A DNA stretch of 64,000 bases from an uncultured Pseudomonadales bacterium (lineage in GTDB: Bacteria; Patescibacteriota; Microgenomatia; UBA1400; PJMF01). The notes beneath the pieces are model-generated. The model was not told the DNA's origin, did no database searches, and was given only the letters and a program-made list of their open reading frames with translations. A program made the position numbers and the translations under genes. Location: positions 75,467 through 139,466 of the forward strand of contig CAYPPX010000003.1 of NCBI GenBank assembly GCA_964412775.1, read 5' to 3'. Within the stretch, counting starts at the first letter, position 1. Every line of letters begins with the position of its first letter. Positions 3,637 through 63,379 of this stretch are shown one piece after another.

Positions 3637-3641
3637 TTTAT

Positions 3642-5783: not shown

Positions 5784-5784
5784 A

Positions 5785-24012: not shown

Positions 24013-24046
24013 AGTTTTTATTCAATTGTTAGCCAGGAAGAACTGC

Positions 24047-25640: not shown

Positions 25641-25725
25641 AAACGCTCTTTCTCGGCAGGTTAATATTGAGTAATTATACCCCCAAACACAAAATGTTGT
25701 ATATTTTTGAAAAAATTTATAAAAA

Positions 25726-25989
25726 TCAGGTTGTTTCAGCCTGTTTAAGCTTATTTGCCAATTCAGCCATTAAGTCAGCATAAGTATCAGCGTCTATCTC
25801 TTGTAGAACGATAGTCACTTCAGCAATTTCCAAAAAACTGATAAATTCTTGCAAAGAATAAACATTTTCATTGTAGTCAAGCCACCATAAAAAAGTTGTC
25901 AAACTATCAGCCAAATGACGATCAAGTAGTTCTGCAACTAACTTTTCTGTTTTTAATCTTAAACTAGTCTTTTCTCTTGGTTCAATCAT
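25726..25989 (-). CDS. Small acidic hypothetical protein (87 aa)
   Basis: ORF in tandem with the other small acidic ORFs. No recognisable motif. Confidence 0.4.
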   Translation of the reverse strand: MIEPREKTSLRLKTEKLVAELLDRHLADSLTTFLWWLDYNENVYSLQEFISFLEIAEVTIVLQEIDADTYADLMAELANKLKQAETT

Positions 25990-25991
25990 GA

Positions 25992-26408
25992 TTATTTTTT
26001 GGCTGTTGATGTTTCTTCTGCTAAAACATCAGCAACTAATTGTGCAAAAAGCTTATAAGTTTCTTCTAAATTAGCTTTAGCTATTTCATCTTTAACTACA
26101 TCCATTTCAAGCGTAATTTGCAGAACCTGATATAAACGATGGGCAAAATCATAAGAAGCTTTGGTCATTAAACCTTCTAGACAAGTTAAAATCTCGGTCG
26201 ATTCCCTTGTTTTTCCAGCTTTGGCTAAAGCCTCAACTACCGGCACTAACTTAATAGAAACAACCTCTAATTCTTTACTAACTTCTTCTGGAATTCGACC
26301 ATTAATCAGTTCTAAATATAGCATTAAGGTTTCAACACTCTTAAAAATTCCCAAATCACTAAGTAAACTTTCATAACCATCCTTCAAAAGCTGAAGCATG
26401 GCATGCAT
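25992..26408 (-). CDS. Acidic helical hypothetical protein (138 aa)
   Basis: ORF in tandem with the other small acidic ORFs. Its ATG overlaps the stop codon of the unlisted upstream 53-aa ORF (TAAATG). Confidence 0.4.
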   Translation of the reverse strand: MHAMLQLLKDGYESLLSDLGIFKSVETLMLYLELINGRIPEEVSKELEVVSIKLVPVVEALAKAGKTRESTEILTCLEGLMTKASYDFAHRLYQVLQITLEMDVVKDEIAKANLEETYKLFAQLVADVLAEETSTAKK

Positions 26409-26568
26409 TTAGCTTAGAACTAGTTCATCAGTATCAGCAAATTCAACTTGCCAACGCAAGTATTCTGGATTTACTGGCACATCACTCCGACCATCTAAAA
26501 TTCTAGCAATTGATTGAGCTGCAATAATTGCATCTAGTTTAGTTGGTTTTTTATTAGCTTCTGTCATA
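26407..26568 (-). CDS. Unlisted 53-aa ORF (MTEANKKPTKLDAIIAAQSIARILDGRSDVPVNPEYLRWQVEFADTDELVLS), first gene of the small-protein operon
   Basis: Read directly from the reverse strand. Stop codon overlaps the ATG of 25992..26408. Confidence 0.3.
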
Positions 26569-26686
26569 AATTTATCTTCAAGCTTATCTATTGACTTAAT
26601 ATTATAAACATATATATTTTATACCATTTTAGATAAAATGCCAGTATATTTTAATACTATAGGATAATAATTATCAGGTCTTTAAT

Positions 26687-32767: not shown

Positions 32768-33713
32768 AACGCATTAGATAAAAATCCAATACCCCTTTGC
32801 GCTCAGCATCATTTCCCTTTAAAAAAGTTTGCACAGAGAATCTCAGGGCAGTCAATTTATTTTTCAAACTACCGTAACGCATTGAGATTAAAATTCTATT
32901 TCTTGTCTGATAGTACTGTTGTAACTTGGAACCAGCTCCCCCCGCGACCGAACCACCATTCATATGCCAAACAATTGACTTTGGCACAAAAACAATCTTA
33001 TAACCAGCTTTTCTTGCTTTTAGACTAAAATCAACATCTTCTGAATAAAGAAAAAACTTTTTATCTAGAATGCCAATGTGTTCAGTGACAACTCTTTTGA
33101 CAAATAAGGCACAACCAGTAGCAAAGTCACAAGTTATTTGATGATCAAATTGACCACGATCAATCTCATCTACACCTCGGTGATAAGCTACCAAGTTATC
33201 TAAATCAACACTTCCTCCGGCATACCACAAAACTTTGCCTTTTTCAGTTCTAGCATAACTTCGACGATGAAACTCAAGTCCTGGAGTAAAATAAATCTTA
33301 GAAACAGCAATCCCAGCTTTTGGATCGTCTTTAATGGCATCATAAAGAGCTTGAATACCATCTTTTTCTACCTCAGCATCTGAATTTAACAGAAAAAAAT
33401 AATCAGTATGATAATGCTTAACCGCATGGCTCATCCCCAAATTGTTACCACCAGTAAAACCCAGGTTGGCTTCACTACGAATTAGCTCAACTCCAGCTTT
33501 TTCCAAATCTTTAGCCAACTTAAAAGGTTCTTTAGAACCATTATCAATCACAATTACTTGGTGGTTAAAACCATTAGCCTTAGCATTCACAGCTGATCTA
33601 ATCGCTAACTCAGTTTCCTTTTGTGTGTTGTAATTAACAATAAGTGTTGTAACGTGTTCCATAGTAACTCCATTATACCCCGAATAATTTGCTAAAAATG
33701 CTCGTATTGCCAA
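32745..33713 (-). CDS. Family 2 glycosyltransferase (rhamnosyl/galactosyl-transferase-like)
   Basis: TTLIVNYNTQKETELAIRS...VIVIDNGSKEP...NSDAEVE. Confidence 0.65.
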   Translation of the reverse strand: MAIRAFLANYSGYNGVTMEHVTTLIVNYNTQKETELAIRSAVNAKANGFNHQVIVIDNGSKEPFKLAKDLEKAGVELIRSEANLGFTGGNNLGMSHAVKHYHTDYFFLLNSDAEVEKDGIQALYDAIKDDPKAGIAVSKIYFTPGLEFHRRSYARTEKGKVLWYAGGSVDLDNLVAYHRGVDEIDRGQFDHQITCDFATGCALFVKRVVTEHIGILDKKFFLYSEDVDFSLKARKAGYKIVFVPKSIVWHMNGGSVAGGAGSKLQQYYQTRNRILISMRYGSLKNKLTALRFSVQTFLKGNDAERKGVLDFYLMRFGKQPIA

Positions 33714-35392
33714 AACTCAATTTGTTGATCAACCTGGTCATTTGCTAATTTGTTTAATAATTTAAATCTTGCATGAGTTTGATTGTAACTAGGAATTTCA
33801 CCACTACTAACTACAAACAACCGATCTTCATCTAGATAATCATCAATATTCCAATTAACCCTTTCAAAATAAATGTTATCCAACCTTTTAACATGTCTAA
33901 AACCTTCCTTATCAGCTGGGTAATATTCAAGTCTATTAGCCAAAGTAGCTGGATCAATCTTTAAATGAAATAGGAAATAGATATAGGGTGAAGATTGTTC
34001 TCCCTCAACGATAACTTTATCATAATTATCTTTCAAAAAATCTACTTGAAAAGCCAATGGCTTCATTTGCCATGACCAACGCTTAGCATCCAGACTCGGA
34101 AAAATAAAATAGTAATGGAATAAAAATTTATAAATAAAATAAAAAAAGCCTATAGCTATAATTAATAATATTGCTAAAAATATTTTTCTAGATATTTTTT
34201 GCTTTAAATAACTAAAAATTTCAAACCAACCATAGGCCGATAATATTTCAATGGCAATAAAAGCTGGAGAAAATCTAATCGTGTGATTAGCTTGAAAAGT
34301 AATCATTGGGGCTACCATAGCCACTAACAACCATATTCCTAACAAATTTAAGTTTCCAAAACCCATAAATATTTGTACAAGACCAACTACCAGACCAAAA
34401 AATACTAGAGGATAAAAATTTCCGAAACCTGTAATATTGTGGGCACCATTATCACCACCTTTCATAAATAAAAACTCAGGAGAAATCATCAAGAAAAAAT
34501 TACTGGTAACTTGATCGATAAAGCCAGTAAATTTATTTAAAGATAATGTCACAAAAAAATTATTTGGATCAGACAAAATAAAGCGTTTTTTGGCGATTGG
34601 TTGGACATAAGCTTCAAGACTAAAAATCGACAAACCACTAAATTTAGTTGAGTTTGCTCCACTAACGCCACTCAAAATTAAAACAATACCAGTTATCATA
34701 AATGGGATCGCTACTAAAACTAATTCTTTCCTTAAATTTTTTCCAGAAAAAAACTTTAGCCAAAAATCTTTGTATAACCAAGCAAAACCAAGTAAAAATA
34801 AAGGTATAAAAACTTGATAAGCATGGTAACCAAGCATGGTAATTAATAAGCTAGAAATTGAGGCAATTAGTAAACCAATTTTTTTAAGTTTTTGTTCTAA
34901 AAATAAAGTCTTAACTTTTAACAACCCCAACAAACCCAGTAGAAAGAAAAACATTGACAGGTGTGCTTCATAAGCAATATGAGAAAAATGGATTGACCAT
35001 GGCGAAACAGCGACAAATAAAGCTGTAGTCAAAGCCAAATTATCAACCAATTTGTATTTTTTGAATAACTCTTTAACCAAAAAATAAACCAACCAAACAA
35101 TACCCACTCCAGCCAACATTGAAGGCAATCTCACCACCCATATTTCCAAACCAAATACCTTAATAAATGGAATTAAACTATAAACATATAAGGGTAATTT
35201 CCAATCACCAAAAGACTCAATTTGAATCGGCCAATATTGACCATGTTCTTCATGACCAGTCAATAAAATTGAGTAAGCAGTGTAACCTAATGAAGCTTCA
35301 TCACGATTCATCTCTGCAGGCGCTAAACCTAATTTAAAAAATCTTAAAAAAAATGCCAACAAGACTACAAAATAAAAAAGTTTCTGTTTCAT
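33692..35392 (-). CDS. GT-C fold glycosyltransferase, PMT/ArnT-like
   Basis: EMNRDEASLGYTAYSIL DE motif, polytopic. Confidence 0.6.
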   Translation of the reverse strand: MKQKLFYFVVLLAFFLRFFKLGLAPAEMNRDEASLGYTAYSILLTGHEEHGQYWPIQIESFGDWKLPLYVYSLIPFIKVFGLEIWVVRLPSMLAGVGIVWLVYFLVKELFKKYKLVDNLALTTALFVAVSPWSIHFSHIAYEAHLSMFFFLLGLLGLLKVKTLFLEQKLKKIGLLIASISSLLITMLGYHAYQVFIPLFLLGFAWLYKDFWLKFFSGKNLRKELVLVAIPFMITGIVLILSGVSGANSTKFSGLSIFSLEAYVQPIAKKRFILSDPNNFFVTLSLNKFTGFIDQVTSNFFLMISPEFLFMKGGDNGAHNITGFGNFYPLVFFGLVVGLVQIFMGFGNLNLLGIWLLVAMVAPMITFQANHTIRFSPAFIAIEILSAYGWFEIFSYLKQKISRKIFLAILLIIAIGFFYFIYKFLFHYYFIFPSLDAKRWSWQMKPLAFQVDFLKDNYDKVIVEGEQSSPYIYFLFHLKIDPATLANRLEYYPADKEGFRHVKRLDNIYFERVNWNIDDYLDEDRLFVVSSGEIPSYNQTHARFKLLNKLANDQVDQQIEFWQYEHF

Positions 35393-36298
35393 TTAAACTT
35401 TTAACTTTCTTCTGATTTGCCAATAAATTTTGCTTAAACCCCTATTATGCCTAACCTGGTAATCAGCCCACCAATAACGCCAAATTTGTTGCATCTTATC
35501 AAGTATTTTAGCAAAATCCTCTGGCTTGGTTTCTTTATAACCTAATTCACCCCACTGCTTAAGATAAATTACTGCTTCATAGTTAGCTTGTAAAAGTGAT
35601 AAAGAAACTCCATGCAAACCTTCTTCAAAACCATTCATCATCAAAGATCTTTTAGCTAATTCATTAGCAAAAACTTCAAATAATTCACTAGAGGAAAAAT
35701 CATCTTTAGGTGAACTTGCCAAACGCTCTTTAGCCTGAATAGACGTGTAGTGGTTCAATTTAGTTAAAAAATGAGCGATATCAGTATAGTTAGCATGTTC
35801 CAAAGCATATTTTTCTTCTGCAGGAAATTTTGCCTGAGTTCCAACCATATCAGGTAAACGGTGAACTCCAACTTGCCATGATACAGCCCCTTTTTTAAAA
35901 AGTCTTGGTTGATAATCAGGCCACCAGCCAGTTTTCATGATCCATTTACCAAAAACATAATTTTTTCTTGGCAAATGGTAAATATCAGCACTATGGTCAT
36001 CATTGATCGTCTTCAGGATTATTTCTTTAAGTTCAGCCTTTACAACCTCATCAGCATCAACCACCAAAATCCAGTCATACTGAGCCTTTGAGATTGCAAA
36101 ATTCCGTGCCGGATCAGCATAACCCAAATCCTCATAGTGATAGATTTTAGTTTTATATTTTTTGGCAATCGCTAAAGTTTCATCAGTGCTTGCCATATCC
36201 ACCACAATCACTTCATCAGCAAATTGAACAGATTTGAGAGTTTTGGCCAAAGTTTCAGCAACGTTCTTGGTATGAATTAAAACAGATAATTTTGACAT
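35393..36298 (-). CDS. Family 2 glycosyltransferase
   Basis: LSVLIHTKNVAETL...VIVVDMASTDET...VVDADEVV. Confidence 0.7.
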   Translation of the reverse strand: MSKLSVLIHTKNVAETLAKTLKSVQFADEVIVVDMASTDETLAIAKKYKTKIYHYEDLGYADPARNFAISKAQYDWILVVDADEVVKAELKEIILKTINDDHSADIYHLPRKNYVFGKWIMKTGWWPDYQPRLFKKGAVSWQVGVHRLPDMVGTQAKFPAEEKYALEHANYTDIAHFLTKLNHYTSIQAKERLASSPKDDFSSSELFEVFANELAKRSLMMNGFEEGLHGVSLSLLQANYEAVIYLKQWGELGYKETKPEDFAKILDKMQQIWRYWWADYQVRHNRGLSKIYWQIRRKLKV

Positions 36299-36369: not shown

Positions 36370-36600
36370 TTAATCATTTTTAAGTTTTGCTTTTTTCTTT
36401 TCAGCTTTTTCGCTTTTTTCTCTTCTTCTAAGATGGCGATCACTATCATGTCTAAGCAGTGATTTTAATAAAATAGTTAATAGGCCTTCTCGACCATATT
36501 CATTAATTAACTGATCTTCAGTTCTCTTTTCTAATGGGGTTCGACTAAGAGACTTTTTTTCCTTCATGGAAAAATGAATTATACCAAGATCTAAAAACAA
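36370..36600 (-). CDS. Small basic hypothetical protein with Lys/Arg-rich C-terminal tail
   Basis: ORF only, no recognisable motif. Divergent from the surface-protein gene. Confidence 0.3.
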   Translation of the reverse strand: MFLDLGIIHFSMKEKKSLSRTPLEKRTEDQLINEYGREGLLTILLKSLLRHDSDRHLRRREKSEKAEKKKAKLKND

Positions 36601-36656: not shown

Positions 36657-37547
36657 ATGATTAATATTGCTACTAACCAACCACCAACTAGTACTACTAG
36701 TGTCCCTCCACAACAACCAATGATGAGCGCCCCTCCTGTACAAGAAGCTTCAGCTCAACAACCTCAACCACCCTTGCCTTCAGAAAAAAAGAAAAGTAAT
36801 TTTCTACTAATTGGTGGAATTATCTTGGCTATTTTAGCTATTGGTGGTCTTGCCAGTATGTTCTTGGTTCAACAACCTCAAGAAATTCGTCAACAAGCCA
36901 CCCAGTGTCAAGAGCAATGTCCAGGTAATGATGGAGTTCTAAGAAACTGTACTCCACCAGAATCAGATGGGTCATCCCAAGATAGTACTTGTAATGTCAA
37001 AGGTAGAGTTGAGTCGTGTGGTGGCAGAGAGTATTGTTGTCCTTCTCCAGGTGGTGCTTGGACAACCAATATGACTGCTTGTGCTACCCCAACCCCAGAA
37101 CCAAGTCCAACAGAAATACCTGGTTTATGTTCTAGTGACTCTGTAGCTGACTGTCGTTCTCTTGACCCAGGTGATTATTGTAATAACGGTGCTGGTGAAT
37201 GTACAACCGATGGCACTAAAGGTGCTGACGATAAAGATGTTTGTACCTGTCAAGCAGAGCCAACCCCCACAACAGAGCCTACTTCTGCTCCAACCACTGC
37301 ACCTACTACTGCCCCAACAACCTCTCCAACGACTGCTCCAACGACTGCGCCTACTACTTCAGCAACTACAGCCCCGACCGTTGCTCCAACAACAGCCCCT
37401 ACCACCGCTGTAGCAGCTACCACTGCTCCAACTCAGCCACCATTGCCTTCTCAGCTGCCAGAGACAGGCCCAGCTGACTGGCTAAGAAACCTATCAATTG
37501 GTCTTGGTGCATTAGGTGCTGGAGCATTACTATTCTTGTTCTTATAA
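36657..37547 (+). CDS. Cys-rich, Pro/Thr-repeat cell-surface protein with C-terminal LPETG plus hydrophobic segment (sortase-type anchor signal)
   Basis: N-terminal TM/signal anchor, about 20 Cys in the central domain, (A/S)PTT tandem repeats. LPETG is followed by a 20-aa hydrophobic stretch at the extreme C-terminus. Confidence 0.6.
   Translation: MINIATNQPPTSTTSVPPQQPMMSAPPVQEASAQQPQPPLPSEKKKSNFLLIGGIILAILAIGGLASMFLVQQPQEIRQQATQCQEQCPGNDGVLRNCTPPESDGSSQDSTCNVKGRVESCGGREYCCPSPGGAWTTNMTACATPTPEPSPTEIPGLCSSDSVADCRSLDPGDYCNNGAGECTTDGTKGADDKDVCTCQAEPTPTTEPTSAPTTAPTTAPTTSPTTAPTTAPTTSATTAPTVAPTTAPTTAVAATTAPTQPPLPSQLPETGPADWLRNLSIGLGALGAGALLFLFL
37270..37430 (+). repeat. Imperfect tandem 12-bp repeat encoding (A/S)PTT
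   Basis: Visible as repeating ccaacNactgcNcc units. It spawns spurious alternative-frame ORFs (37162..37413, 37241..37477). Confidence 0.7.
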
Positions 37548-37554
37548 GCTAACA

Positions 37555-38655
37555 ATGAATCAAGCTGGACTTGCCACAATAAATACTCTTAAAAGTAAGT
37601 TGATTTTTGGACTATTGCTTACTCTTATTTTAGCAATTATTTATAAAGATAAGATTTTTACCAGCTTGGATCAAACTTCTGTAGCCGATTTATATAGCCA
37701 ATCTCAATATATTCTTGGTGATAGTGCCATTAATAAAATTGATGACGCCACCCTTTATCAATATGCTGGAATCGCTTATCTTAGAGGGGAGGACCCAACT
37801 ACTATTAATTTTGAACATCCACCCTTGGGAAAATATTTTTTTGGGCTATCTACAGTCATTACTGGTAACCCATTAATTATTAATCTGCTATTTTTTTATG
37901 GAATTTTATTGTTATTAGTTTTATTGATGAATAAATTCTCAGTTTCTGCTCCACTGCAATATTTATTTATCACTTATTTTGCTATTTTTAGTTCACTCAA
38001 AAATCATTTGTTTACCTCTCTACTTGATTTACAAACTCTTTTTTGGTCATTACTTTACTTTGTCCTACTATTTAGCAACAAAGAAAGTTGGGCCAAATAT
38101 TTAGCTATTGGTTTAACCTTGGGTTTATTTATTAGTACTAAATACTTTTTCCCAATAATTTTTCTCTATCTACTAACGCTTTTTATTTGGAGTTTCAAGA
38201 AAAAAACACTTATTAAAGCCAGTGTCGCATCTTTATTGATGTTAATTATTTATTTACTAGGATACGTTGTTTTTTTTACCAACCATAACTTGGTAGATTT
38301 TATTAAGTTCGAATGGTATAGATTCAAATGGTGGACGGGCAATAGAACCATTCCTAAATTTATTATTTTAAATACCCTCTTTACTGGTCAATACCCCGCC
38401 TGGTGGGAAAAATCTGGAACAATGATGCGTGATGGCGATTGGAATATCTCCTGGCCAGTTCTATTTGCTTCCTATCTCGTCAGCCTTTTTAAACAAAAAT
38501 ATGACCTAAAAAAAACAATTGTTTTAATATTTTCATTAGCCTTAATGATTATCTTTTTATTTGGTTCAGCAGTTTATGGAAGATATTTATTACAATTAAT
38601 GCCATTCTGGTTAATTAGTCTTGCTGGAATAAAGTATGCTAAAAAAAGTAACTAA
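37555..38655 (+). CDS. PMT-family (GT39-like) membrane glycosyltransferase, short form (start trimmed to internal Met)
   Basis: FEHPPLGKYFFGL motif (the HPPLGK box of Pmt-type O-mannosyltransferases), polytopic. Confidence 0.5.
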   Translation: MNQAGLATINTLKSKLIFGLLLTLILAIIYKDKIFTSLDQTSVADLYSQSQYILGDSAINKIDDATLYQYAGIAYLRGEDPTTINFEHPPLGKYFFGLSTVITGNPLIINLLFFYGILLLLVLLMNKFSVSAPLQYLFITYFAIFSSLKNHLFTSLLDLQTLFWSLLYFVLLFSNKESWAKYLAIGLTLGLFISTKYFFPIIFLYLLTLFIWSFKKKTLIKASVASLLMLIIYLLGYVVFFTNHNLVDFIKFEWYRFKWWTGNRTIPKFIILNTLFTGQYPAWWEKSGTMMRDGDWNISWPVLFASYLVSLFKQKYDLKKTIVLIFSLALMIIFLFGSAVYGRYLLQLMPFWLISLAGIKYAKKSN

Positions 38656-40351
38656 ACTAATTCCTTGGCTACTAAGTTTCGGAGTAATTTTGGTGGTAAT
38701 TTCAAGATTAATTATTCCAACCAAGATAAACCAAGGCATGTGGTATATCTTTGATGATGTTCATACCGTTAGAACTAATGAAATGGTTAATGAACTAAAA
38801 AATGGTCAATTCCCAGTTCGTTATCTAGGAAATCTAGCCTTTAAAAGGGGCTACCTGTTATTTAATTTTTATTCTCCCTTAGTTTATTACTTGACTAGTG
38901 CTTTAGTTTTCATTGGTAAATCACCACTCAATGCAGTTAAAAATGTTTTTCAGCTTAGCTATCTAATTGCTGGAAGTGGCATGTTCTTGTTACTAAAACA
39001 CTATTTTCCCAAAAAATGGTTTTTGCCAATTTTAGGCAGTATCCTACTGATTAGTAGCCCCTACTTTAATTACAATATCTACACTAGAGGTGCTCTTGCA
39101 GAAGTTTGGGGCTTTGCCTTAATCCCTTGGCTATTTCTTGCTTATGAATTAATTAAAAAACACAAAAGTAATTTAGCAATTGTTCTCTTCTCAGTTATAG
39201 CCAGCTTGATGTTTTACGTTCATGCCATCAGCGCTTTTATTGCCATTCCTTTATTATTAGTCAAATTTTTGATCGAATGGCAAATAACTAAACAAATAAG
39301 TAAAGAGATTTTTAAAAGGTACTTTTTGAGTTCGATTATTGGTTTTGCTCTGAGTGCTAGCTACTTACTGCCAGTTATTTTCGAAAAAAACCAAGTTATC
39401 TACTCAAATGTTGAGTTTGTAGTCAGTGGTTTTAAAACTGGTTTTGTAAACTTCAATGAACTAATTGGCTTGAGTAAAAACGCTGATCCGAAAATTATTC
39501 CTATTACTCTCGGTAAAACTTTAGCCATCTCAACCTTGATCTCCATAATCATTGTTTTTTATAAACTAGTAAAAAAATCACAACTAAAACTAAAAAACGA
39601 GTTTACTACTAATTTAATACTAATAGTTATTACTAGCTTTATTTTGCTTAAGCCAAGTAGTTTTATTTGGGAAAACAATCCTCTCTTACAAATGACTCAA
39701 TTTCCCTATAGATTCATGATTTTGCTAACTTTTTTAAGTGTTCTCTTCATTATCATAACCTTAAATTTAGTTAAAAATAATTTTCTAAAAATAATTTTTG
39801 GCTTAGTGATTCTACTTAGTAGTTTTTATGGTAATAAAATTTTCTATCAACCTAGTGGCTACTACTTTGCTGGTAACTTTGAAGCAGCAGATCTTTGTGC
39901 CACTACAACCTGGCAAGCAGAATACTTGCCAAAATGGGCCACTAACTGTGCTACTTTGAACTCACCTAAACAAGAAATCAGAGTAAACACTGGAGAAATT
40001 GAGGTGACTAATTCAAGGTTTAATTCCAACAATCTAGAAGTTGAAATTGAAACCAACGGTAAAAGTGGTACTTTGGAAGTTGATCGTTACTTTTATCCTG
40101 GCTGGCAAGCTAAAACTTTTGAAAAAAACCTAACTATTAAACCGGTCGATAATCTGGGTATTATCAAAATTGAAGTACCTGAAAATACCAACTTTATTAA
40201 GCTAACGTTTCAAGATACTTTAATTAGAAAAATTGGTAATTTATTAACTTTAAGTTCAATCATCAGCATCTTGATCATTGCTTTAATTGAAATTATTAAA
40301 TACAAAAAAATTTATCTAAGTGGGTTATTCACATCAAAAAAAGCAGCCTGA
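38636..40351 (+). CDS. Large membrane protein, YfhO-like paralog family A
   Basis: DDVHTVRTNEMVNELKNGQFPVRYLGNL N-terminal motif and C-terminal RYFYPGWQA beta-domain. Confidence 0.5.
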   Translation: MLKKVTKLIPWLLSFGVILVVISRLIIPTKINQGMWYIFDDVHTVRTNEMVNELKNGQFPVRYLGNLAFKRGYLLFNFYSPLVYYLTSALVFIGKSPLNAVKNVFQLSYLIAGSGMFLLLKHYFPKKWFLPILGSILLISSPYFNYNIYTRGALAEVWGFALIPWLFLAYELIKKHKSNLAIVLFSVIASLMFYVHAISAFIAIPLLLVKFLIEWQITKQISKEIFKRYFLSSIIGFALSASYLLPVIFEKNQVIYSNVEFVVSGFKTGFVNFNELIGLSKNADPKIIPITLGKTLAISTLISIIIVFYKLVKKSQLKLKNEFTTNLILIVITSFILLKPSSFIWENNPLLQMTQFPYRFMILLTFLSVLFIIITLNLVKNNFLKIIFGLVILLSSFYGNKIFYQPSGYYFAGNFEAADLCATTTWQAEYLPKWATNCATLNSPKQEIRVNTGEIEVTNSRFNSNNLEVEIETNGKSGTLEVDRYFYPGWQAKTFEKNLTIKPVDNLGIIKIEVPENTNFIKLTFQDTLIRKIGNLLTLSSIISILIIALIEIIKYKKIYLSGLFTSKKAA

Positions 40352-41658
40352 TTCCAATAAGTAGTTGCGTCCATGGTTAAAGCTACAAAAATGTTGGTGA
40401 CAATTAGTAATAACAAAATTAAAAAATAAATAAATTTACTTATTTTCTTTAGATTTAGGCTCTCAAACAAAACTGGTAAAAAACCAACTGAAAAAATGCC
40501 TCTCATTGACCAAATAGATAAAGATTCTAGTAAGTTTAGTTTCAAAAAAGCTAAATTGAATAGCGGTAACAATAATAACCATGTCATTCCAGCCAGTAAC
40601 CAAAGCCTTTTTTCTTGAATTAATTTAATTAACTCAACCAGATTGATAATTAAAGTTGGCCACAATAAATAATCATACCAGCCATGATAAGTTGTCCCTC
40701 CTACAGAAAACAAGATAAAAACTAAGTTAATTAAAAATGTAATATTTAAAAATAAATATTTTTTATCTTTGTTAGCAAGCATAAGAATTGAAGCAAAAAA
40801 ACCTAAAATTTTCCAACCATCAAATAATAAGTGTCTGATCACCACCGGATGAATAAATAGCCGATTTTGGAGGGTTACAAAACTTAAATCCCTGGTAGAT
40901 TGACTTGAAAGTAACTTCAAAAATAATGAAAAATCATAAATTGCTCCATAAATAAAAAATAAACTAATGCCTACCAGTAAACCAAATAAACTTGCTTTGA
41001 ATAATTTCCAATTTTTTTCTAAAAAAGCATAAGCCAAAATTGAAACTGGAATCACTAAACCAGCAACTTTTGTCAAAACTGCTAGCAAACTTAAGATAAA
41101 AACTAATTTAATCGACCATTTTTTGTCTAAATTAAACACTGCACAATAGGCTAAAATTGTCCAAGTAACTAATAAATTTTCAGCCACCACTAACCGGCTA
41201 CCAAAAACCAATGTTGGAATAGTGATAAACAAAGTCGTTGCTAATAAAGAAAATCTTTTCTTGCTAAAAAATTTATCAACCACTAACCAAAATAAACCAA
41301 CATTTAGTGCTCCCAATAAAATCATCGGGAAACGAACTAATTTAGCCGAAGGAAAATCTAACCAATGAGCTTTTAAACTTTGAGCTAATCCTGGTAACAA
41401 AGAAAACAATGGTGGATGATCAAAAGCTGGTCTAACAACTGGTGCATCATAAACTCCAGTTTTGTAAATGTATTTATCTTCATAATCAGTAAAATATGAC
41501 CAAGAGGCAGGAACTTTTTCTTGAATTAACGAAGCACCAAGCATCGTCCAAGCCCATTCATCAGCTGTTTCACCAAAAACAGGAAAGTGATAATAATTAT
41601 AAACTCTAATTAAAAATCCTATGATTACCAACAATAAAAAAATAGCTATTTTCTTCAT
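40312..41658 (-). CDS. PMT-family (GT39-like) membrane glycosyltransferase
   Basis: PAFDHPPLFSLLPGL motif, polytopic. Confidence 0.5.
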   Translation of the reverse strand: MKKIAIFLLLVIIGFLIRVYNYYHFPVFGETADEWAWTMLGASLIQEKVPASWSYFTDYEDKYIYKTGVYDAPVVRPAFDHPPLFSLLPGLAQSLKAHWLDFPSAKLVRFPMILLGALNVGLFWLVVDKFFSKKRFSLLATTLFITIPTLVFGSRLVVAENLLVTWTILAYCAVFNLDKKWSIKLVFILSLLAVLTKVAGLVIPVSILAYAFLEKNWKLFKASLFGLLVGISLFFIYGAIYDFSLFLKLLSSQSTRDLSFVTLQNRLFIHPVVIRHLLFDGWKILGFFASILMLANKDKKYLFLNITFLINLVFILFSVGGTTYHGWYDYLLWPTLIINLVELIKLIQEKRLWLLAGMTWLLLLPLFNLAFLKLNLLESLSIWSMRGIFSVGFLPVLFESLNLKKISKFIYFLILLLLIVTNIFVALTMDATTYWNQAAFFDVNNPLR

Positions 41659-43148
41659 TTATTAAGTAAATTTTTTACTTCTCTGAAAATTCGTTGGTGC
41701 CCTACTAACAAAATTACCACCAAATAAACAAAAGAGGTTACAAACATGCCAAGCAACATTGTTCTCAAACTAGTTGCCCAATAATTTAGTTGCCAGCAAC
41801 CAACCAAGGTCATCATCGCTACTCCAACTGTTGCTTCCTTAATTTGAGGTAAGATTTCTAATGGAATATATTTTTTAACCATTTGCACCGAAAAAATTGA
41901 AGTAAAAGAAATCAAAAAAGCTGCCAAAGCTACACCGTTGAAACCTAGCCACCACATCATGATTGGGGTCAAAATCCAAGTCAAAACAGTCCACATCACC
42001 ATCAATTTTAAAGTTTGATTAATATGACCAATCGCATTGAGAGTATTAACTAGTGGCGTTGATAAAGCTGCCCAACCAATGCTCAAGGCAAAGAAAATAA
42101 AACTAAAAATGGCTGGTTCCCACTTGGCATATTTATCGACAACTTGAGTAAGTGGCCAAATAAAGATACTCATTCCTGCTAGGATCGGAAAAATTGCTAA
42201 AGAAATAAAGAAAATTGATTTTTCAATCGCTTTTTTTAGTAAATCTTGGTGATTTTGCAATCTAGAATAAGTTGGGAAAGTAATAGCCATAACATTTTGC
42301 ACAGTTAAATTATATGGATACATAGACCAATTTTTTGCCCATTGAATATAACCGAATTGATCTAATGGTAAAAATGCACCCAAACCCAGATAAAAAAGTT
42401 GATCTTTTATCCTGGCTAAAAAATCGTTTAACTGAAATTTTAAACCGAAGTTCAACATTGATTTTAAAACATTACTACTCCAAAAAAAGCCAATCTCTTT
42501 CCAAGGTTCAATCAGCCACATTACCACTACACCAATTAACGATCTAGCAATAATTGCATAAGCATAAGCCATCACCCCAAAACCTTTTAAAGCTAAAACA
42601 ATCAACAAACCATAAAAAACAATTTGTTCAAAAATTTGGGGAATAACTAGCCTTTGAAACAATAATTTTCTCTCCAATTTGATTGAAGAAACAGTTTTTA
42701 GGGTAGCTAGAGGAAAAGAAATCGCCAAACTTAATAAAACCCAAACACCAGCTTGACCTACTTTGGCTTGAATAAAACCAAAACTTAATAAGCTCAAGAT
42801 TACTGCCACAATCACCCAAGACAATAACCACTGTAAAGTAAAAGCAACTCGATATTCTTCATTTTTAGGATCATTTTTTTGCTGAACGAGTGAGGCTGCT
42901 AAACCAATATCAGAGAAAAAAATCAATAAACCAATAATTTGCGTCACATAACCATAAACACCAAAATCACTTGGTGAAAAAAATGCACTCAAAATAAAAG
43001 CAGCAACTAACCCAATTCCTTGTAAAAAAGCAGTTCTAAAAAAATATGAAATAACTCCAGAAACAGATTTTCTTTTTATTTCTGCTACTTCATCAGTCAT
43101 TAGTTCTTCAAGCTCATCGGTTGTATCGGCTACTGTTTGATTAATCAT
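41655..43148 (-). CDS. Wzx/MOP-superfamily oligosaccharide flippase
   Basis: About 12-14 TM helices and the length and topology of polysaccharide biosynthesis (PST/Wzx) proteins. Confidence 0.6.
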   Translation of the reverse strand: MINQTVADTTDELEELMTDEVAEIKRKSVSGVISYFFRTAFLQGIGLVAAFILSAFFSPSDFGVYGYVTQIIGLLIFFSDIGLAASLVQQKNDPKNEEYRVAFTLQWLLSWVIVAVILSLLSFGFIQAKVGQAGVWVLLSLAISFPLATLKTVSSIKLERKLLFQRLVIPQIFEQIVFYGLLIVLALKGFGVMAYAYAIIARSLIGVVVMWLIEPWKEIGFFWSSNVLKSMLNFGLKFQLNDFLARIKDQLFYLGLGAFLPLDQFGYIQWAKNWSMYPYNLTVQNVMAITFPTYSRLQNHQDLLKKAIEKSIFFISLAIFPILAGMSIFIWPLTQVVDKYAKWEPAIFSFIFFALSIGWAALSTPLVNTLNAIGHINQTLKLMVMWTVLTWILTPIMMWWLGFNGVALAAFLISFTSIFSVQMVKKYIPLEILPQIKEATVGVAMMTLVGCWQLNYWATSLRTMLLGMFVTSFVYLVVILLVGHQRIFREVKNLLNK

Positions 43149-45012
43149 ATTGTTCTCTTGGTTGCTTAGTAACTATTTTTTTAGGGAAGATCAAATAAAT
43201 AAAAATTAACCAACTTAACAAGCTAAGGTAATCAGCGATTGTTCTTAAATTAGTCCCTTCAAACCTTAAACTAATCAAATGACTACCCGCTGGTACTGCC
43301 AATAAAATATTACCATTTTCAGCTTTGTCCTTATTCCACCACTGACCATCAATCTCTGCTCTCCAACCAGGATAAGTTGCAACTGCTAACTCTAAATCAG
43401 TAGTCTCAGCAAAATTAGTTTTAATCAGTTTTTCTTGAGTCCGGTCTACCAAAACTTCAAAACTATCAGTGTCATTATTTATATTCATCACTAATTTTTC
43501 AGGTATCACGGTTGGCTTTTCAAGCATATCTGCAGAAATGTAATCTGGCAAAATACTGCTTAATTGGTGACGAATTTTTAATGAGTCAGTGTAATAAAAA
43601 TCAGTTGAATCAACTAAATATTTTTCTGGTCTAAAATAAATAGCTGAGCCAAAAACAGTAATTACCACTAATAAACCAGTTAACCATACTCTAACAATTT
43701 TGTTTTTAACTAGCCACACTAAACTAGCCAGTAGTAATGCCAAAAAAACAATGGTTATCCCTAACCATCTCCAAGGAAACTGAATAAACTTGAATAACTC
43801 AATCTTATCCCACAAAAACTGAGTTTTTAGTAAACTCATTAAGCTGGTAGTTAAAAATAAGCCAGCAAATAAACTAGTAAAAAAGAATTTTTGTTGAGTA
43901 ATTGGTTGAGCTTGGTTGAAAAATTTTCGCAATATAGACATCAACCAAAGCAAAACTAAAACTACCAAAGCTAAAAGCTGCCCCCAACCAAAGAAAAAAG
44001 AAATTTGATCTTCTGTCCCCCAACCACTTCCACCATAACCCCAGTTCGGAATAAAAAATTGACGAATATATAAAAAGTGCAAGTGATAATCAAAATATGG
44101 GGTCAAGATGATTTTTTCCACTTGAGTATAATTTTTTTCTAAAAAGGCTGGTAATAAATAAAAACTAGCAGCGCCAACAGCCAACAAACCACTACTAGCT
44201 ATTTGCCAACCAATTCTTATCAAGTTCCTCAATCTAAATCTCCCTTTTCTAAAAAGTTCTGGAGCCTGTTGCCAAACCATCCATAAACCATAACTACCAG
44301 CAAATACCAACAAAACTGGTAAAAAGATCATTGTTGTAATATTGTGTGACAAGAACAGTCCCACTAAAGACAAGAAAAAAATCTGCCAACCAGCTTTTTC
44401 TTGATGAAAAAGTTTAATTAATCCCAAAAGAATCCATGGTAAAAACATAATTCCCCAAGCTTCATTTAAAGCACCCCTAGCAAATAAATTCATTGCCCGA
44501 TATGGAGCTAAGGTTAGAAAAGCTGCTACCAATAATCCACCAGCCTGGCCAAAAAACTTTTTACCCAAAAAATAGCCACCAAGCATGGTGCCAAGGTTAG
44601 TGAGCAAATAGAGAAATTTAATACTAATAATGACATTATTTGAAATGATAAAGACTATTGCTCCCAGATAAAATGGTAATGGGCCATAAAACTCAAAAAG
44701 AGGCATCCCATAACCATAACCAAAGTTTGCTGTCCATCTAACCGGGAAATGGCCATCTTGGAGAGCTCTAGCCATTTCAGCAATCCTACCTGCTTGAGTA
44801 AAATCATGCACCCTGAAAAATTGATTGGTCACTAATAAAGACCAGGAAGAGGCCAAAAAAATTAACAACAAAAAAGATAATACAAACCACTGTTTGAATC
44901 TCTGCACAAGCTTATTGTAGCTTAAGATTAGAGAAATGCCTACAATTTTTCTCTTTAAAAAAAATCGTATACAATAGCTGATGTTCATGAAAAAGAAAAA
45001 ACCATTAAACAA
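43141..45012 (-). CDS. Large membrane protein, YfhO-like paralog family A
   Basis: FRVHDFTQAGRIAEMARALQDGHFPVRW N-terminal motif and C-terminal TYPGWRAEIDGQ beta-domain. Confidence 0.5.
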   Translation of the reverse strand: MFNGFFFFMNISYCIRFFLKRKIVGISLILSYNKLVQRFKQWFVLSFLLLIFLASSWSLLVTNQFFRVHDFTQAGRIAEMARALQDGHFPVRWTANFGYGYGMPLFEFYGPLPFYLGAIVFIISNNVIISIKFLYLLTNLGTMLGGYFLGKKFFGQAGGLLVAAFLTLAPYRAMNLFARGALNEAWGIMFLPWILLGLIKLFHQEKAGWQIFFLSLVGLFLSHNITTMIFLPVLLVFAGSYGLWMVWQQAPELFRKGRFRLRNLIRIGWQIASSGLLAVGAASFYLLPAFLEKNYTQVEKIILTPYFDYHLHFLYIRQFFIPNWGYGGSGWGTEDQISFFFGWGQLLALVVLVLLWLMSILRKFFNQAQPITQQKFFFTSLFAGLFLTTSLMSLLKTQFLWDKIELFKFIQFPWRWLGITIVFLALLLASLVWLVKNKIVRVWLTGLLVVITVFGSAIYFRPEKYLVDSTDFYYTDSLKIRHQLSSILPDYISADMLEKPTVIPEKLVMNINNDTDSFEVLVDRTQEKLIKTNFAETTDLELAVATYPGWRAEIDGQWWNKDKAENGNILLAVPAGSHLISLRFEGTNLRTIADYLSLLSWLIFIYLIFPKKIVTKQPREQYD

Positions 45013-46138
45013 AGAAATAAAACCGGAGTTAATCGCTGATGAAACAGCTGAACAAAAATCAGACTACTCGAGTAATTTATTTTATTTATTTCTAAAAACC
45101 AACCTGTTAGCCTTATTTTTTGCCAGCATCATGTTATTTATGACTGCTATTGCCATTGGTATCTGGGGATATAGCAAATATCAAAGATTTGCTAATACTG
45201 CAGAAATAAATATCATCGAACTAAGAAAAACTCTAGAAAAAGGCTGGACCCAAGAACCTATGGCCACCAATGGTTATAAAAATATTCTACTACTCGGTGT
45301 TGATTCACTGACTGGCCGAGGTAATGTCCCACCATTGACCGATACTATGATGTTATTAACTATTAATTTAAAAACTGGTCAAGTTAATACTTTACCTTTC
45401 CCTAGAGATTTATGGTCAGAAAAATACCAAACCAAGATTAATGCCCTCTATTTTTATGGTCAAGAGCGTTTTCCCAATAAACCAGAACAATTTACCGAAG
45501 AAACTTTAGAAGAATTGACTGGTATAGAGATTCACCACACTCTAGTCGTTTCGCTAGATAAACTAGAAGAATTAATTGATACTGTCGGTGGAGTGACTAT
45601 CGATATTCCAGTTGGTTTTACAGATGATGAATTTCCTCGGCCAAACATTGATGTCACTATAGAAAGAGATCCTAAAATTCTTTACCAAACCGTTACTTTT
45701 GAACCTGGTAACCAAACTCTGTCTGGAGAAAGAGCCTTACAATATATTAGAAGTCGTCATAGTGAAGGTGATGAGGGTACAGACATCTCTCGTGGAGCAA
45801 GACAACAACTAGTAATTAAAGCTCTAGTTGCTCAGCTTATGAATTTTGATCAATACCTCAAACAACCAGAACTAGCTGGAGAGCTTTACAAGTTTTATGA
45901 TGAAAACTTTGCTTCCGCTTTTTCTTTAGAAGAAGCTATCGCCACAGCTAAAAAACTTTTACCAGTTAGAGATCAAATTGAGCTTCAAAGTCATCAATTT
46001 TCTACTACCAAAGAAGACCCAACCAATGGCTTACTAGACAATCCCAGGCCATCTTATCTGTACCAAAATCAATGGGTTTATACCATCAAAAATGAAGCCA
46101 ATTTTAAGTTAGCAGTTCAAGAAATGTTGTTCCAATGA
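44981..46138 (+). CDS. LytR-CpsA-Psr (LCP) family glycopolymer phosphotransferase
   Basis: N-terminal TM, then NILLLGVDS...R.DTMMLLTINLKTGQVNTLPFPRDLW, the classic LCP core. Confidence 0.8.
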   Translation: MFMKKKKPLNKEIKPELIADETAEQKSDYSSNLFYLFLKTNLLALFFASIMLFMTAIAIGIWGYSKYQRFANTAEINIIELRKTLEKGWTQEPMATNGYKNILLLGVDSLTGRGNVPPLTDTMMLLTINLKTGQVNTLPFPRDLWSEKYQTKINALYFYGQERFPNKPEQFTEETLEELTGIEIHHTLVVSLDKLEELIDTVGGVTIDIPVGFTDDEFPRPNIDVTIERDPKILYQTVTFEPGNQTLSGERALQYIRSRHSEGDEGTDISRGARQQLVIKALVAQLMNFDQYLKQPELAGELYKFYDENFASAFSLEEAIATAKKLLPVRDQIELQSHQFSTTKEDPTNGLLDNPRPSYLYQNQWVYTIKNEANFKLAVQEMLFQ

Positions 46139-46353
46139 AAACTATCTTTGTAAAAGTCAAACCAAATAGCCGAAAAAATGAAATCAAAGAAGTTCATGGC
46201 TTATTAGTCGTCTACCTAACCAAATCACCAGAGCAAGGTAAAGCAAATAAACAACTTTTAACCATGTTGGCTAACTACTATGGAGTAAAACTTTCCCAAG
46301 TTTTACTCTTAAGTGGTGAGACTTCAGCTGACAAAAAAATCGGAATTTTATAA
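46135..46353 (+). CDS. DUF167/YggU-family small protein
   Basis: VKVKPNSRKNEI...GKANKQLLTMLANYYGV...LLSGETSADKKIGI matches the YggU consensus including the GKAN motif. Translationally coupled to the LCP gene. Confidence 0.6.
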   Translation: MKTIFVKVKPNSRKNEIKEVHGLLVVYLTKSPEQGKANKQLLTMLANYYGVKLSQVLLLSGETSADKKIGIL

Positions 46354-46382
46354 AAGTTAGTTTATACTTTAAATATTAAACT

Positions 46383-46574
46383 ATGAAAAAAATCTTTACC
46401 CAAACTCTGCCACAACCACTCTCCCCTAAAGTTATTATTCGGGTACTGCTGGTGGTAATTATTGGTTTGGCTTATTTGGCTGGTTACTACCACTCTCTAT
46501 GGCAGTTACAAAATAAAAAAATAGACAACTTAGAAAATAACCAATACAATTGCGAAATAGTTGATAATTATTAA
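46383..46574 (+). CDS. Small single-TM membrane protein
   Basis: ORF with one hydrophobic helix (IIRVLLVVIIGLAYLAGYY). Confidence 0.35.
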   Translation: MKKIFTQTLPQPLSPKVIIRVLLVVIIGLAYLAGYYHSLWQLQNKKIDNLENNQYNCEIVDNY

Positions 46575-46588
46575 GTTAAGGAAAGAAT

Positions 46589-47602
46589 ATGGCAAAAACT
46601 TTGTTAGTCACTGGTGGAGCTGGTTTTATTGGCTCTAACTTTGTACTTTATTGGTTGAAAAACCATCCAGAAGATAAGATCATTAACCTCGATAAGCTCA
46701 CCTATGCTGGCAACTTAGCCAACCTAACTACAGTTGAAAACCAACCCAATTACACTTTTATTAGAGGCGACATTGGTGATAAAGAATTAGTTGATAAAAT
46801 CATGGATGACGTTGATGTGGTGGTTCACTTCGCGGCTGAATCTCATGTTGATCGTTCAATTAAGAATCCAGAATTATTTTTGGAAACAAATATCATTGGT
46901 ACTCAAGTTTTACTTGATTCAGCTCTCAAAAATAAAATTGAAAGATTTCACCATATTTCTACTGATGAGGTTTTTGGTGCTTTGGAATTAAATACTAAAG
47001 AAAAATTCTCTCATGATACCGCTTACAATCCTCATAGCCCATACTCTGCTAGCAAAGCTGCTTCTGATCATTTAGTGAGAGCTTACGGCACCACTTATGG
47101 CTTACCATACACCATTACCAACTGTTCAAACAATTATGGTGAATATCAATTTCCAGAAAAGTTCTTACCATTAACTATTACTAATCTGCTGGAAAATAAA
47201 ACTATCCCAGTTTATGGCGATGGTCTTTATGTCCGTGACTGGCTTTATGTCCAAGATCACTGTACTGCCATTGATAAAGTTTTGACTGATGGTAAGTTAA
47301 AAGAAACTTACCTAATTGGTGGCTTGACTGAAGATGTTTCTAACTTAGAAATTTCTAAAATGATTATTAAACTAATGGGTAAATCAGAAGATAGCATTGA
47401 ATATGTCCAAGATCGTCCTGGTCATGATCGACGCTATGCTGTTGACTGGACCAAAATCAATCAAGAGCTTGGCTGGGAACCTAGTGTCTCATTAGAAGAA
47501 GGTATCCAAAAAACAATTGATTGGTATAAAAATAATCAAGCTTGGTGGCAAACCCTCAAAAATAATCAACAAGCATACTTTTCAGAACAATACAAAAAAT
47601 AA
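46589..47602 (+). CDS. rfbB: dTDP-glucose 4,6-dehydratase
   Basis: LLVTGGAGFIGSNFV, DKLTYAGNL, YSASKAASDH (YxxxK), extended SDR of the RmlB type. Confidence 0.8.
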   Translation: MAKTLLVTGGAGFIGSNFVLYWLKNHPEDKIINLDKLTYAGNLANLTTVENQPNYTFIRGDIGDKELVDKIMDDVDVVVHFAAESHVDRSIKNPELFLETNIIGTQVLLDSALKNKIERFHHISTDEVFGALELNTKEKFSHDTAYNPHSPYSASKAASDHLVRAYGTTYGLPYTITNCSNNYGEYQFPEKFLPLTITNLLENKTIPVYGDGLYVRDWLYVQDHCTAIDKVLTDGKLKETYLIGGLTEDVSNLEISKMIIKLMGKSEDSIEYVQDRPGHDRRYAVDWTKINQELGWEPSVSLEEGIQKTIDWYKNNQAWWQTLKNNQQAYFSEQYKK

Positions 47603-62954: not shown

Positions 62955-62955
62955 A

Positions 62956-63378: not shown

Positions 63379-63379
63379 A

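Follow-up and report, generated by a model that had tools for sequence, protein, structure and literature searches.

In this study we analysed a 64,000-nucleotide stretch of contig CAYPPX010000003.1 (assembly GCA_964412775.1), here called the window, which is the genome sequence that was examined, and within it the gene of a Cys-rich protein that ends in an LPETG motif and is very probably displayed on the cell surface. According to the listing of open reading frames (ORFs) and their translations, this target gene lies at 36657..37547 on the + strand and encodes 296 amino acids (aa) plus a stop codon. From the N- to the C-terminus the product consists of a long predicted signal anchor, two Cys modules, a Thr/Pro-rich stalk and the LPETG tail. 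An earlier sequence-only reading of the protein was mostly right, although its Cys count and the regularity it gave to the stalk repeat need correction. The whole protein has no match in Pfam, and in NCBIfam it gives one sub-threshold match at the C-terminus only (TIGR01167).

Over 10.2 kb (36886-47105) the window shows 96.1% nucleotide identity to a contig of GCA_020849455.1, a metagenome-assembled genome (MAG) titled 'Candidatus Pacebacteria bacterium', so the two belong to the same species. Pacebacteria are part of the Microgenomates/OP11 within the Candidate Phyla Radiation (CPR), and the NCBI phylum of this MAG is now Minisyncoccota. Several MAGs titled 'uncultured Pseudomonadales bacterium' (L010, L018, L020, L024, L025 and others) have loci in synteny with Pacebacteria that show about 70-77% identity to the window; these titles look taxonomically wrong. 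When the window is compared with the conspecific MAG, 33 of the substitutions in the target gene are synonymous and 5 non-synonymous, and they are distributed over the Cys modules, the stalk and the tail. This pattern shows that the whole ORF is under strong purifying selection and that the gene is real; a pseudogene or a non-coding stretch is ruled out by the same ratio. The MAG has a stop at codon 153, in the linker between the Cys modules (TAA at L047:226-228, where the window has GAA at 37113-37115). Beyond this stop we counted 25 synonymous and 3 non-synonymous changes, hence the TAA is either a very recent or polymorphic knockout or an error of assembly or consensus. Full-length orthologues share 50-71% identity with the target.

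The N-terminal signal or transmembrane (TM) anchor proposed by the sequence-only reading is present as a single hydrophobic segment. It is preceded by a P/Q/S/T-rich region (residues 1-48; 36657..36800, +) that ends in KKKSN and is predicted to be cytoplasmic by the positive-inside rule. The MIN(I/V) start of this region and the basic cluster before the TM segment are conserved in orthologues and also in paralogues with other ectodomains. The Gly-rich hydrophobic segment itself (F49-V71; 36801..36869, +), conserved as ...GGIILAILAIGGLASLFLV, can be read as a signal anchor or an uncleaved signal peptide. Behind it follows the conserved juxtamembrane motif QQPQEIRQQA (36870..36899, +; ...QD[ILV]RQQA in the class 1 module described below), which recurs in many Cys-rich proteins of the same lineage that are unrelated in other respects.

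Instead of the approximately 20 Cys first claimed, the protein contains 14, eight of them in a 59-aa module (C84-C142) and six in a 41-aa module (C158-C198). The former, domain A (36906..37082, +), follows the pattern C-x3-CP-x8-C-xPPExDG-x6-C-x8-CG-x4-CCP-x5-WTTxMxxC. A Pro/Thr/Glu linker, ATPTPEPSPTEIPGL (PTPEPSPTE; 37083..37127, +), which is conserved in close orthologues, joins it to domain B (37128..37250, +), the 6-Cys module recognized by alignment of orthologues and paralogues. Domain B stands ahead of domain A in P0007 and P0009 and occurs without it in P0014, and the L052 orthologue has a different Cys module in its place. Among 22 unique copies of domain A 19 positions are invariant. 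A profile search with domain A against a word-indexed database returned 2 matches only, and a DNA-pattern scan of metagenomes found 67 further loci. Behind the class 1 motif the domain always starts 1-4 residues past the conserved Ala, and in the short homologue P0065 an ordinary signal peptide stands directly before it. Its partners are the target-type tail, other LPxTG-like tails (LPETGILDF..., IPVTG..., LPDAG... and LPASG...KYKN, the last with a basic end), a dockerin, or none. In P0008 (306 aa) and at L049:4005-4754 a C-terminal dockerin-type repeat (DLNHDG...) stands behind one or two copies of domain A, and the same head module seems to be used there with a cohesin-dockerin style anchor instead of an LPxTG tail.

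By this distribution domain A appears to be a mobile extracellular module, which, to judge by the variety of anchors it is combined with, may be a displayed binding head. Neither a PDB sequence nor a Pfam family matches it, and the small Cys-rich modules of the target gave no fold match; the AlphaFold2 model of domain A is a small, confidently predicted fold with four short strands and one short helix and a predicted local distance difference test score (pLDDT) of 84.3. MdbA-like oxidoreductases and VKOR are reported to be enriched in CPR bacteria (PMC6744442), so that extracellular disulfide formation would be feasible. The Cys of both modules would then be disulfide-bonded, and each module may bind a ligand.

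The C-terminal tail

The LPETG pentapeptide occupies residues 267-271 of 296 (37455..37469, +), within about 35 residues of the C-terminus. It is followed by PADWLRNLS and a Gly-zipper-like hydrophobic end, IGLGALGAGALLFLFL-COOH (37470..37544, +), and the complete C-terminal run is TQPPLPSQ-LPETG-PADWLRNLSIGLGALGAGALLFLFL-COOH. The hydrophobic segment WLRNLSIGLGALGAGALLFLFL extends to the very C-terminus, and ...PSQLPETGPADWLR... would be the candidate sortase substrate peptide. The earlier description of a tail without the usual basic end holds: 25 residues follow the motif, the last 15 of them free of Lys and Arg, and the protein closes with ...ALLFLFL-COOH. Absence of the motif from orthologues, which the sequence-only reading had named as a point against it, was not seen. 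Each orthologue has LPETG, LPATG or LPQTG, and all full-length ones retain LP[EAQ]TGPE[DN]WL...LFL. Even in an alignment that includes paralogues with swapped or missing Cys modules, the last ~38 residues are the best-conserved stretch, with the consensus QPxLPxxLPx[TS]GPEDW...LLLFL-COOH.

Scanning one genome per species with the patterns LP[EQ][TS]GP[EA][DE]W and G[AI]GALL[FL]LFL, we found the tail at 38 loci, all of them in MAGs of Pacebacteria, Woesebacteria or other Patescibacteria (a few are titled 'Pseudomonadales', apparently by mislabelling). The window and loci L001-L046 together hold 53 tail-bearing ORFs of 218-939 aa; most are Cys-rich, and they occur several per genome and often in tandem. 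Of the 45 unique tails, 44 have a distance of exactly 30 residues between the L of LPxTG and the C-terminus. In these 44 tails, when aligned, L, P and G of the motif are invariant, position 4 is T (33 tails), S (10) or A (1), and position 3 varies (Q/E/K/V). Near-invariant among the 45 are also PEDW, G16, L20, G21, G23 and the end LLL[LF]L. Exhaustive phmmer searching of 1.84 billion representative proteins with the 41-residue tail gave 48 clusters at E <= 1e-3, with the match at the extreme C-terminus in 46 of them; a tail-only word-index homology search had returned nothing, which is a limitation of that search. Other carriers of the tail contain DUF11 or fn3 repeats, both typical of surface proteins. 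Hence LPETG at the end of the target is no chance occurrence but belongs to a conserved C-terminal domain that behaves like a sorting signal. By its rigid length and sequence and its missing charged end this domain would be a lineage-specific signal of the LPXTG type, and invariant L, P and G together with T or S at position 4 and a free position 3 match the logic of a sortase.

The tail-bearing proteins begin with one of two conserved modules, both with long predicted cytoplasmic leaders. Class 1, to which the target belongs, consists of MIN..., 30-70 P/Q-rich residues, a K-rich stretch, a TM segment and [SN]QD[ILV]RQQA, whereas class 2 has MLKKITEPQA.Y.K..., a TM segment and then AQ[RK]Q...PVAPNAP.S.P.A. 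In a survey of L005-L046 the class 1 module was found on Cys-rich proteins without the tail as well. In loci L011-L046 (for example L019:6086-13939 and L015:9719-17090) we also noted large Cys-rich tail proteins with DUF11/fn3 repeats and up to 72 Cys. In Pacebacteria and Woesebacteria they belong to a conserved cluster that also encodes an HlyD-like protein, a secreted protein of 104-142 aa, a VirD4/TraG-like ATPase and an ABC transporter of the MacB type (ABC_tran plus MacB_PCD/FtsX).

The stalk and the glycosylation island

Between domain B and the LPETG motif lies the Thr/Pro/Ala stalk (residues 199-266; 37251..37454, +), which ends in TQPPLPSQ. The (A/S)PTT stalk of about 60 aa described earlier is thus present; it measures 68 aa with 26 Thr and 4 Ser, and Pro, Thr, Ala and Ser make up 88% of it. 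The underlying 12-bp tandem repeat is real but degenerate, and less regular than had been implied. Tandem Repeats Finder places the repeat within 37278-37409, with a period of 12 bp at 37281-37369 (72% matches) and related periods of 24 and 48 bp. As the longest exact repeat in the stalk DNA is 13 bp, it is not a slippage-prone perfect array. Variation in copy number, which the sequence-only reading had thought possible, is directly confirmed by the conspecific MAG, which has exactly one extra 12-bp APTT unit. Across orthologues the stalk varies from 42 to 68 aa and its sequence is replaced, from (A/S)PTT to AQPT repeats or poly-Ser, while its richness in Ser, Thr and Pro is kept.

As had been read from the sequence, the target stands next to glycosylation machinery, with glycosylation genes on both flanks. 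Only 7 nucleotides past its stop follows the ATG of a gene for a 366-aa multi-pass membrane protein (37555..38655, +), which is probably co-transcribed with it. The annotation of the conspecific MAG gives this gene the same start, and an orthologue of it follows the target in L009 and L010. The next gene encodes a 571-aa GT-C-like membrane protein (38636..40351, +; PTPS_related, PF10131, 56.5 bits) and overlaps the preceding one by 20 nucleotides. No terminator-like site was found between the target and these downstream genes; together with the 7-nucleotide gap and the overlap this makes it likely that the three form one operon. The 366-aa protein, which contains a PMT-like DD...EHPPLGK stretch, was considered as a PMT homologue. 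We make no such claim, as its PMT_2 match of 8.8 bits (E = 2.3) is not significant and a search of PDB sequences gave nothing. Divergent from the target lies a conserved ORF for a basic 65-aa protein (36370..36567, -) without a Pfam match, which may regulate the target or act as its partner. It has the same position relative to the target in L001, L004, L009 and L010, with tblastn identities of 70% (L009, L010), 57% (L001) and 38% (L004).

Further to the right, Pfam identifies a PMT_2 GT-C (40312-41658, -), a Wzx-type flippase (41655-43148, -), a GT-C-like gene (43141-45012, -) and a LytR-CpsA-Psr (LCP) gene (44981-46138, +). The left flank (33692..36298, -) carries a GT-C-like gene (33692-35392, -; PMT_2 22.7 bits, below the cutoff) and a GT2 gene (35393-36298, -; Pfam). 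Comparing loci L001-L004, L009, L010, L047, L050, L052, L059 and L112, we found a kept gene order of small ORF (-), target (+), PMT_2 GT-C (-), flippase (-), GT-C (-), LCP (+), RmlB and RmlD. The orthogroup of the target lies in such a GT-C/flippase/LCP island in at least nine related genomes, and GT-C genes have been gained and lost directly on either side of it.

Almost the whole window (1-64000) is taken up by a glycosylation island of exceptional density, which is remarkable in a CPR genome of ~1 Mb. It contains 7 PMT_2 and 2 PTPS_related GT-C genes above the Pfam cutoffs, about 7 more multi-pass proteins below threshold, at least 10 GT2, 3 GT1, 2 flippases, LytR-CpsA-Psr and 8 nucleoside diphosphate (NDP)-sugar enzymes. 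The elements of a Pmt/GT39 system are found in it as well: a Ser/Thr-rich linker, a PMT-family GT-C (57213-58778; PF02366 28.2 bits with a cutoff of 22.7, PMT_2 51.7 bits) and a candidate polyprenol-phosphate-sugar synthase (52453-53619; GT2 plus a GtrA/DPMS_TM domain). In actinobacteria GT39 enzymes mannosylate linkers of this kind heavily, with up to 65 hexoses on a 69-aa linker (PMC11727336), from polyprenol-phosphate-mannose made by Ppm1 (PMC5882110). The mechanistic analogy between Pmt/Ppm1 and the stalk of the target seems sound and makes such a modification plausible here.

Elsewhere in the window we noted several features that are separate from the target. The first 8 kb (1-8000) have a G+C fraction of 0.21-0.26, compared with 0.31-0.37 in the rest, and carry GT2, GT1, methyltransferase, flippase-fusion and GT-C genes; this region may be a separately acquired glycan-variation cassette. 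A GC-rich patch (24000-26600; 0.435) contains a lipoprotein-like ORF (24047-25111, -) with the lipobox LSGC; a Pro/Thr-rich linker of its own makes it a possible further target of O-glycosylation, and four small acidic helical ORFs without a family match follow it. At 58822-59475 there is a protein with a histidine-kinase ATPase domain but no obvious sensor or TM segment, at 59452-60132 an OmpR-type response regulator, and at the window end (62493-63796) three tandem ORFs of 138-153 aa, one of which alone passes the Response_reg threshold. An Rfam scan of the window gave tRNA-Gln only.

Proposed sorting and glycosylation of the protein

We read the target as a surface protein that is linked to the wall by a sortase-type enzyme and whose Thr-rich stalk is plausibly O-glycosylated by a neighbouring GT-C, and we give this reading a probability of about 0.6. 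In these monoderm Pacebacteria (Microgenomates/CPR) the protein would be inserted into the membrane by its long N-terminal signal anchor, and the 8-Cys and the 6-Cys module would fold outside the cell with disulfide bonds, on top of a ~68-aa Thr/Pro stalk that spans the wall zone. The C-terminal 38 residues (QPxLPxxLPxTG-PxDW and the Gly-rich hydrophobic end) would keep this end of the protein in the membrane until it is cut between T270 and G271, and the protein joined to peptidoglycan, by a sortase-type transpeptidase with a gene elsewhere in the genome. A neighbouring GT-C enzyme, outward-facing and dependent on lipid-linked sugar as PMT is in actinobacterial O-mannosylation, would probably O-glycosylate the Thr of the stalk. 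The tail is likely to be a processed sorting signal, that a sortase does the processing is moderately probable, and for glycosylation of the stalk we see an even chance or slightly better.

Several observations weigh against this reading, first of all as regards sorting. At its N-terminus the target departs from a canonical cleavable signal peptide, as the n-region measures 48 aa and the hydrophobic segment is followed by no AxA-type site; the conserved ...RQQA lies 10 residues past this segment. Hence the protein might stay anchored in the membrane at its N-terminus. Lys or Arg occurs in the last 15 residues of none of the 45 unique tails, whereas a positively charged tail is a defining part of the classical sorting signal (PMC8225981). 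Against the LPXTG_anchor model TIGR01167 (cutoff 15.9 bits) the whole target scores 10.9 bits and its tail alone 8.7 bits. A sortase was detected neither in the window nor in 113 related loci (phmmer, TLxTC-type regular expression), which for the window bears out what the sequence-only reading had said. In the window all ORFs in or near the sortase size range (138-411 aa) were also scanned with Pfam, and the longer ORFs there belong to other families or cross the membrane several times. The phmmer query, in the window as in the related loci, was Staphylococcus aureus SrtA, a single distant sequence that may miss divergent CPR sortases. These negatives show a lack of close linkage only, not absence from the genome. 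Among the recurrent neighbours of tail-bearing genes (a MacB-type ABC transporter, HlyD, a VirD4-like ATPase, housekeeping genes and more class 1 Cys-rich proteins) there is no candidate protease or transpeptidase, and genes for an exosortase, archaeosortase or rhombosortase were likewise not seen nearby. Nor does the target resemble a sortase-assembled pilin, which would have a pilin motif/E-box in CnaB/Ig-like domains and a pilus-specific sortase beside it: the target has no Pfam domain match, its ectodomains are small Cys-rich modules without a fold match, and an adjacent sortase was not found. On the other side, a sortase family is reported to occur in nearly all Microgenomates (PMC6744442) and one complete Microgenomates genome is reported to encode a sortase (PMC7143001), which makes such an enzyme the simplest candidate for the processing.

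It might be possible that the tail is instead a permanent, uncleaved TM anchor. The protein would then be a hairpin fixed at both ends that presents the Cys modules as a loop, with LPxTGPEDW as a structural or interaction motif. The N-terminal anchor that looks uncleaved and the about 120 related genes without a visible sortase nearby fit this idea, as do the missing basic tail, which is the classical retention element that gives a sortase time, and the G-x-G-x-x-G-x-G of the tail, which resembles a helix-packing motif. However, a hydrophobic segment of 18-22 residues that ends at the carboxyl terminus without a cytoplasmic residue is a poor stable anchor, and constant L, P and G with T/S at position 4 and any residue at position 3 is a sortase recognition pattern. 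Known LPXTG proteins have an S/T/P-rich wall-spanning region just before the motif, and the stalk of the target resembles it. In addition, sister tails rise above the LPXTG_anchor threshold of 15.9 bits (scores of 18.0 and 22.1 bits; another reaches 15.3 bits), matching model positions 1 to 27-29 of 34 while the part that describes the basic tail stays unmatched. We therefore consider a permanent anchor unlikely.

A second alternative is that the tail serves a distinct, undescribed sorting machine of Microgenomates which is not a sortase and perhaps includes the N-terminal modules, so that the likeness to LPXTG signals would be convergent or distant. In its favour the tail behaves like a homology domain of fixed length with ~38 conserved positions including the QPxLP box, while classical signals vary in their hydrophobic part. 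The carriers have one of two conserved N-terminal modules, many of them lie clustered with genes for a VirD4-like ATPase, an HlyD-like protein and a MacB-type ABC transporter and not with a sortase gene, and the target's own tail stays under the TIGR01167 cutoff. Yet no candidate for a processing enzyme recurs beside them, the neighbours being transporters, housekeeping genes and Cys-rich proteins, and a sortase is already reported for nearly all of the lineage. Moreover, no other curated C-terminal sorting model matches the tail. In NCBIfam at E <= 10 we obtained LPXTG_anchor for the target tail and five of six sister tails, one of which had an additional weak match to another LPXTG/sortase-dependent surface-protein family; the sixth (LPASG...KYKN) matched no family. 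The models for PEP-CTERM, PGF-CTERM and GlyGly-CTERM matched neither the target nor any of the six. A machine of this kind thus appears even less probable to us than a permanent anchor, and a sortase-type signal remains the preferred reading of the tail.

As regards glycosylation of the stalk, the evidence is genomic context. The genomes with this synteny are closely related, their neighbouring genes matching at E-values of 1e-160 to 1e-300, and common descent could account for the gene order they share. When the close orthologues (L001-L004, L009, L010, L047) are set aside, glycosyltransferases lie within 5 kb at only 3 of 38 domain A loci, and all three carry further orthologues of the target. 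A general link between domain A and glycosyltransferases was rejected on this count. Together with the synteny among relatives it indicates that the glycosylation association is specific to the target orthogroup and rests on context. Hence the O-glycosylated stalk proposed by the sequence-only reading is plausible, since the GT-C/flippase/LCP context is kept, but weakened by the domain A proteins elsewhere that do not lie beside glycosyltransferases.

The island could equally make a wall glycopolymer, and the target would then be a sortase-type protein with a bare, non-glycosylated Thr/Pro spacer that owes its place to inherited gene order. The Wzx-type flippase, LytR-CpsA-Psr and the rhamnose/NDP-sugar genes are hallmarks of glycopolymer synthesis, and non-glycosylated LPXTG proteins with Pro/Thr-rich wall-spanning regions exist. 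The close relationship of the genomes and the domain A proteins without glycosyltransferase neighbours point in the same direction. On the other hand, the target stays in place while GT-C genes turn over on both sides, it apparently shares an operon with two GT-C-like genes, the window has a PMT-family enzyme and a DPMS-like synthase, and Ser/Thr richness survives in orthologues whose stalk sequence is replaced. We rate the bare spacer as a serious possibility that falls somewhat short of even odds. Position in the middle of the island and apparent co-transcription with membrane glycosyltransferase-like genes might also suggest that the target is a component of glycan assembly, for example a membrane-tethered scaffold or an acceptor/primer anchored at both ends, rather than a displayed product or substrate. 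This is very improbable: the protein shows no likeness to known components (Pfam, NCBIfam, PDB sequence and fold searches were all without a match), and domain A, which at unrelated loci is combined with a dockerin or with other surface anchors, fits the picture of a displayed binding module better.

CPR bacteria, or Patescibacteria, make up a large share of bacterial diversity and most are thought to live attached to other cells; to our knowledge their surface proteins and the sorting of these are almost uncharacterised. The tail offers a compact and conserved signal that is directly searchable and would list displayed proteins of Microgenomates. If a sortase processes such signals, the classical basic retention element would not be universally required. 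The target is a concrete candidate substrate amid GT-C genes and probably co-transcribed with them, and CPR O-glycosylation could be tested by heterologous co-expression. A wider and, in our view, doubtful idea is that Microgenomates (Pacebacteria, Woesebacteria and relatives) possess a sorting code of their own, within which the target would be a member dedicated to O-glycosylation by a PMT-like GT-C outside Actinobacteria. Such a code would combine the ~38-aa domain QPxLPxxLPx[TS]GPEDW...GLxxLGxGAxLLLxL-COOH, with its 30-residue spacing and no basic tail, with MIN...KKK-TM-QDxRQQA or MLKKITEPQA...TM...PVAPNAPxSxPxA at the N-terminus. If this were true, and a dedicated CPR sortase read the code, it would define the displayed, Cys-rich and partly glycosylated surfaceome of ultra-small and probably host-dependent bacteria, and would supply an enzyme and its substrate with which bacterial GT-C protein glycosylation could be tested in CPR. 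In any case the locus is a clean example of how poorly known CPR bacteria may sort, and perhaps glycosylate, their surface proteins.

Comparison with known systems

The target shares several features with the serine-rich repeat glycoproteins of Firmicutes (GspB/Fap1/SraP): an N-terminal leader that is unusually long and has a Gly-rich hydrophobic core, a repetitive stalk of hydroxy amino acids, an LPXTG-type C-terminus and a gene placed among glycosyltransferases. However, the Pfam families of SecA2/SecY2/Asp and GtfA/GtfB were not found among the window ORFs scanned, its repeats are (A/S)PTT and not SxSx, it is about ten times smaller, and the enzymes encoded beside it would be extracytoplasmic GT-C rather than cytoplasmic GT-B. 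With PEP-CTERM/exosortase, PGF-CTERM/archaeosortase and GlyGly-CTERM/rhombosortase it has in common a lineage-restricted C-terminal homology domain of motif and TM segment, shared by many secreted proteins that have little else in common, with several in one genome and often in tandem. The signature is LPxTG in place of PEP, PGF or GG, the models of those systems remain unmatched, and those signals end in a basic cluster, whereas the tail described here does not.

In its stalk the target resembles the substrates of actinobacterial Pmt (GT39)/Ppm1 (Cellulomonas, Streptomyces; PMC5882110, PMC11727336). The Thr/Pro-rich segment, with 26 Thr in 68 aa, is a candidate acceptor linker, and the window supplies a PMT-family GT-C, a GT2-GtrA/DPMS protein and many GT-C of the PMT_2 type. 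In contrast to the actinobacterial system, the GT-C genes that adjoin the target are of PMT_2 or PTPS_related type or sub-threshold, and not clearly GT39; the host is a CPR bacterium, the island also contains a flippase and LCP, and a glycan on the target is predicted from gene context.

The closest likeness is to the LPXTG proteins of Gram-positive bacteria (sortase A/F-type, TIGR01167). Differences are seen at both ends. The N-terminus of the target is a long predicted signal anchor, its tail scores below the model cutoff, and the 64 kb examined here are without a visible sortase gene. The 45 unique tails of its family lack a positively charged end and instead keep a fixed 30 residues with a PEDW box, GLGALGxGA and an LLLFL end, preceded by a QPxLP box. 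The target and the Gram-positive proteins have in common LPxTG with a hydrophobic segment behind it, at the extreme C-terminus, as well as an S/T/P-rich stalk of the wall-spanning kind upstream of the motif and the functional domains N-terminal to the stalk. Furthermore, TIGR01167 is the sole curated model that matches the tail, sister tails pass it, and the host belongs to a monoderm lineage for which a sortase is reported. What is new about the signal is that LPXTG logic without a basic tail is combined with a fixed length and strong conservation and is paired with conserved N-terminal modules.

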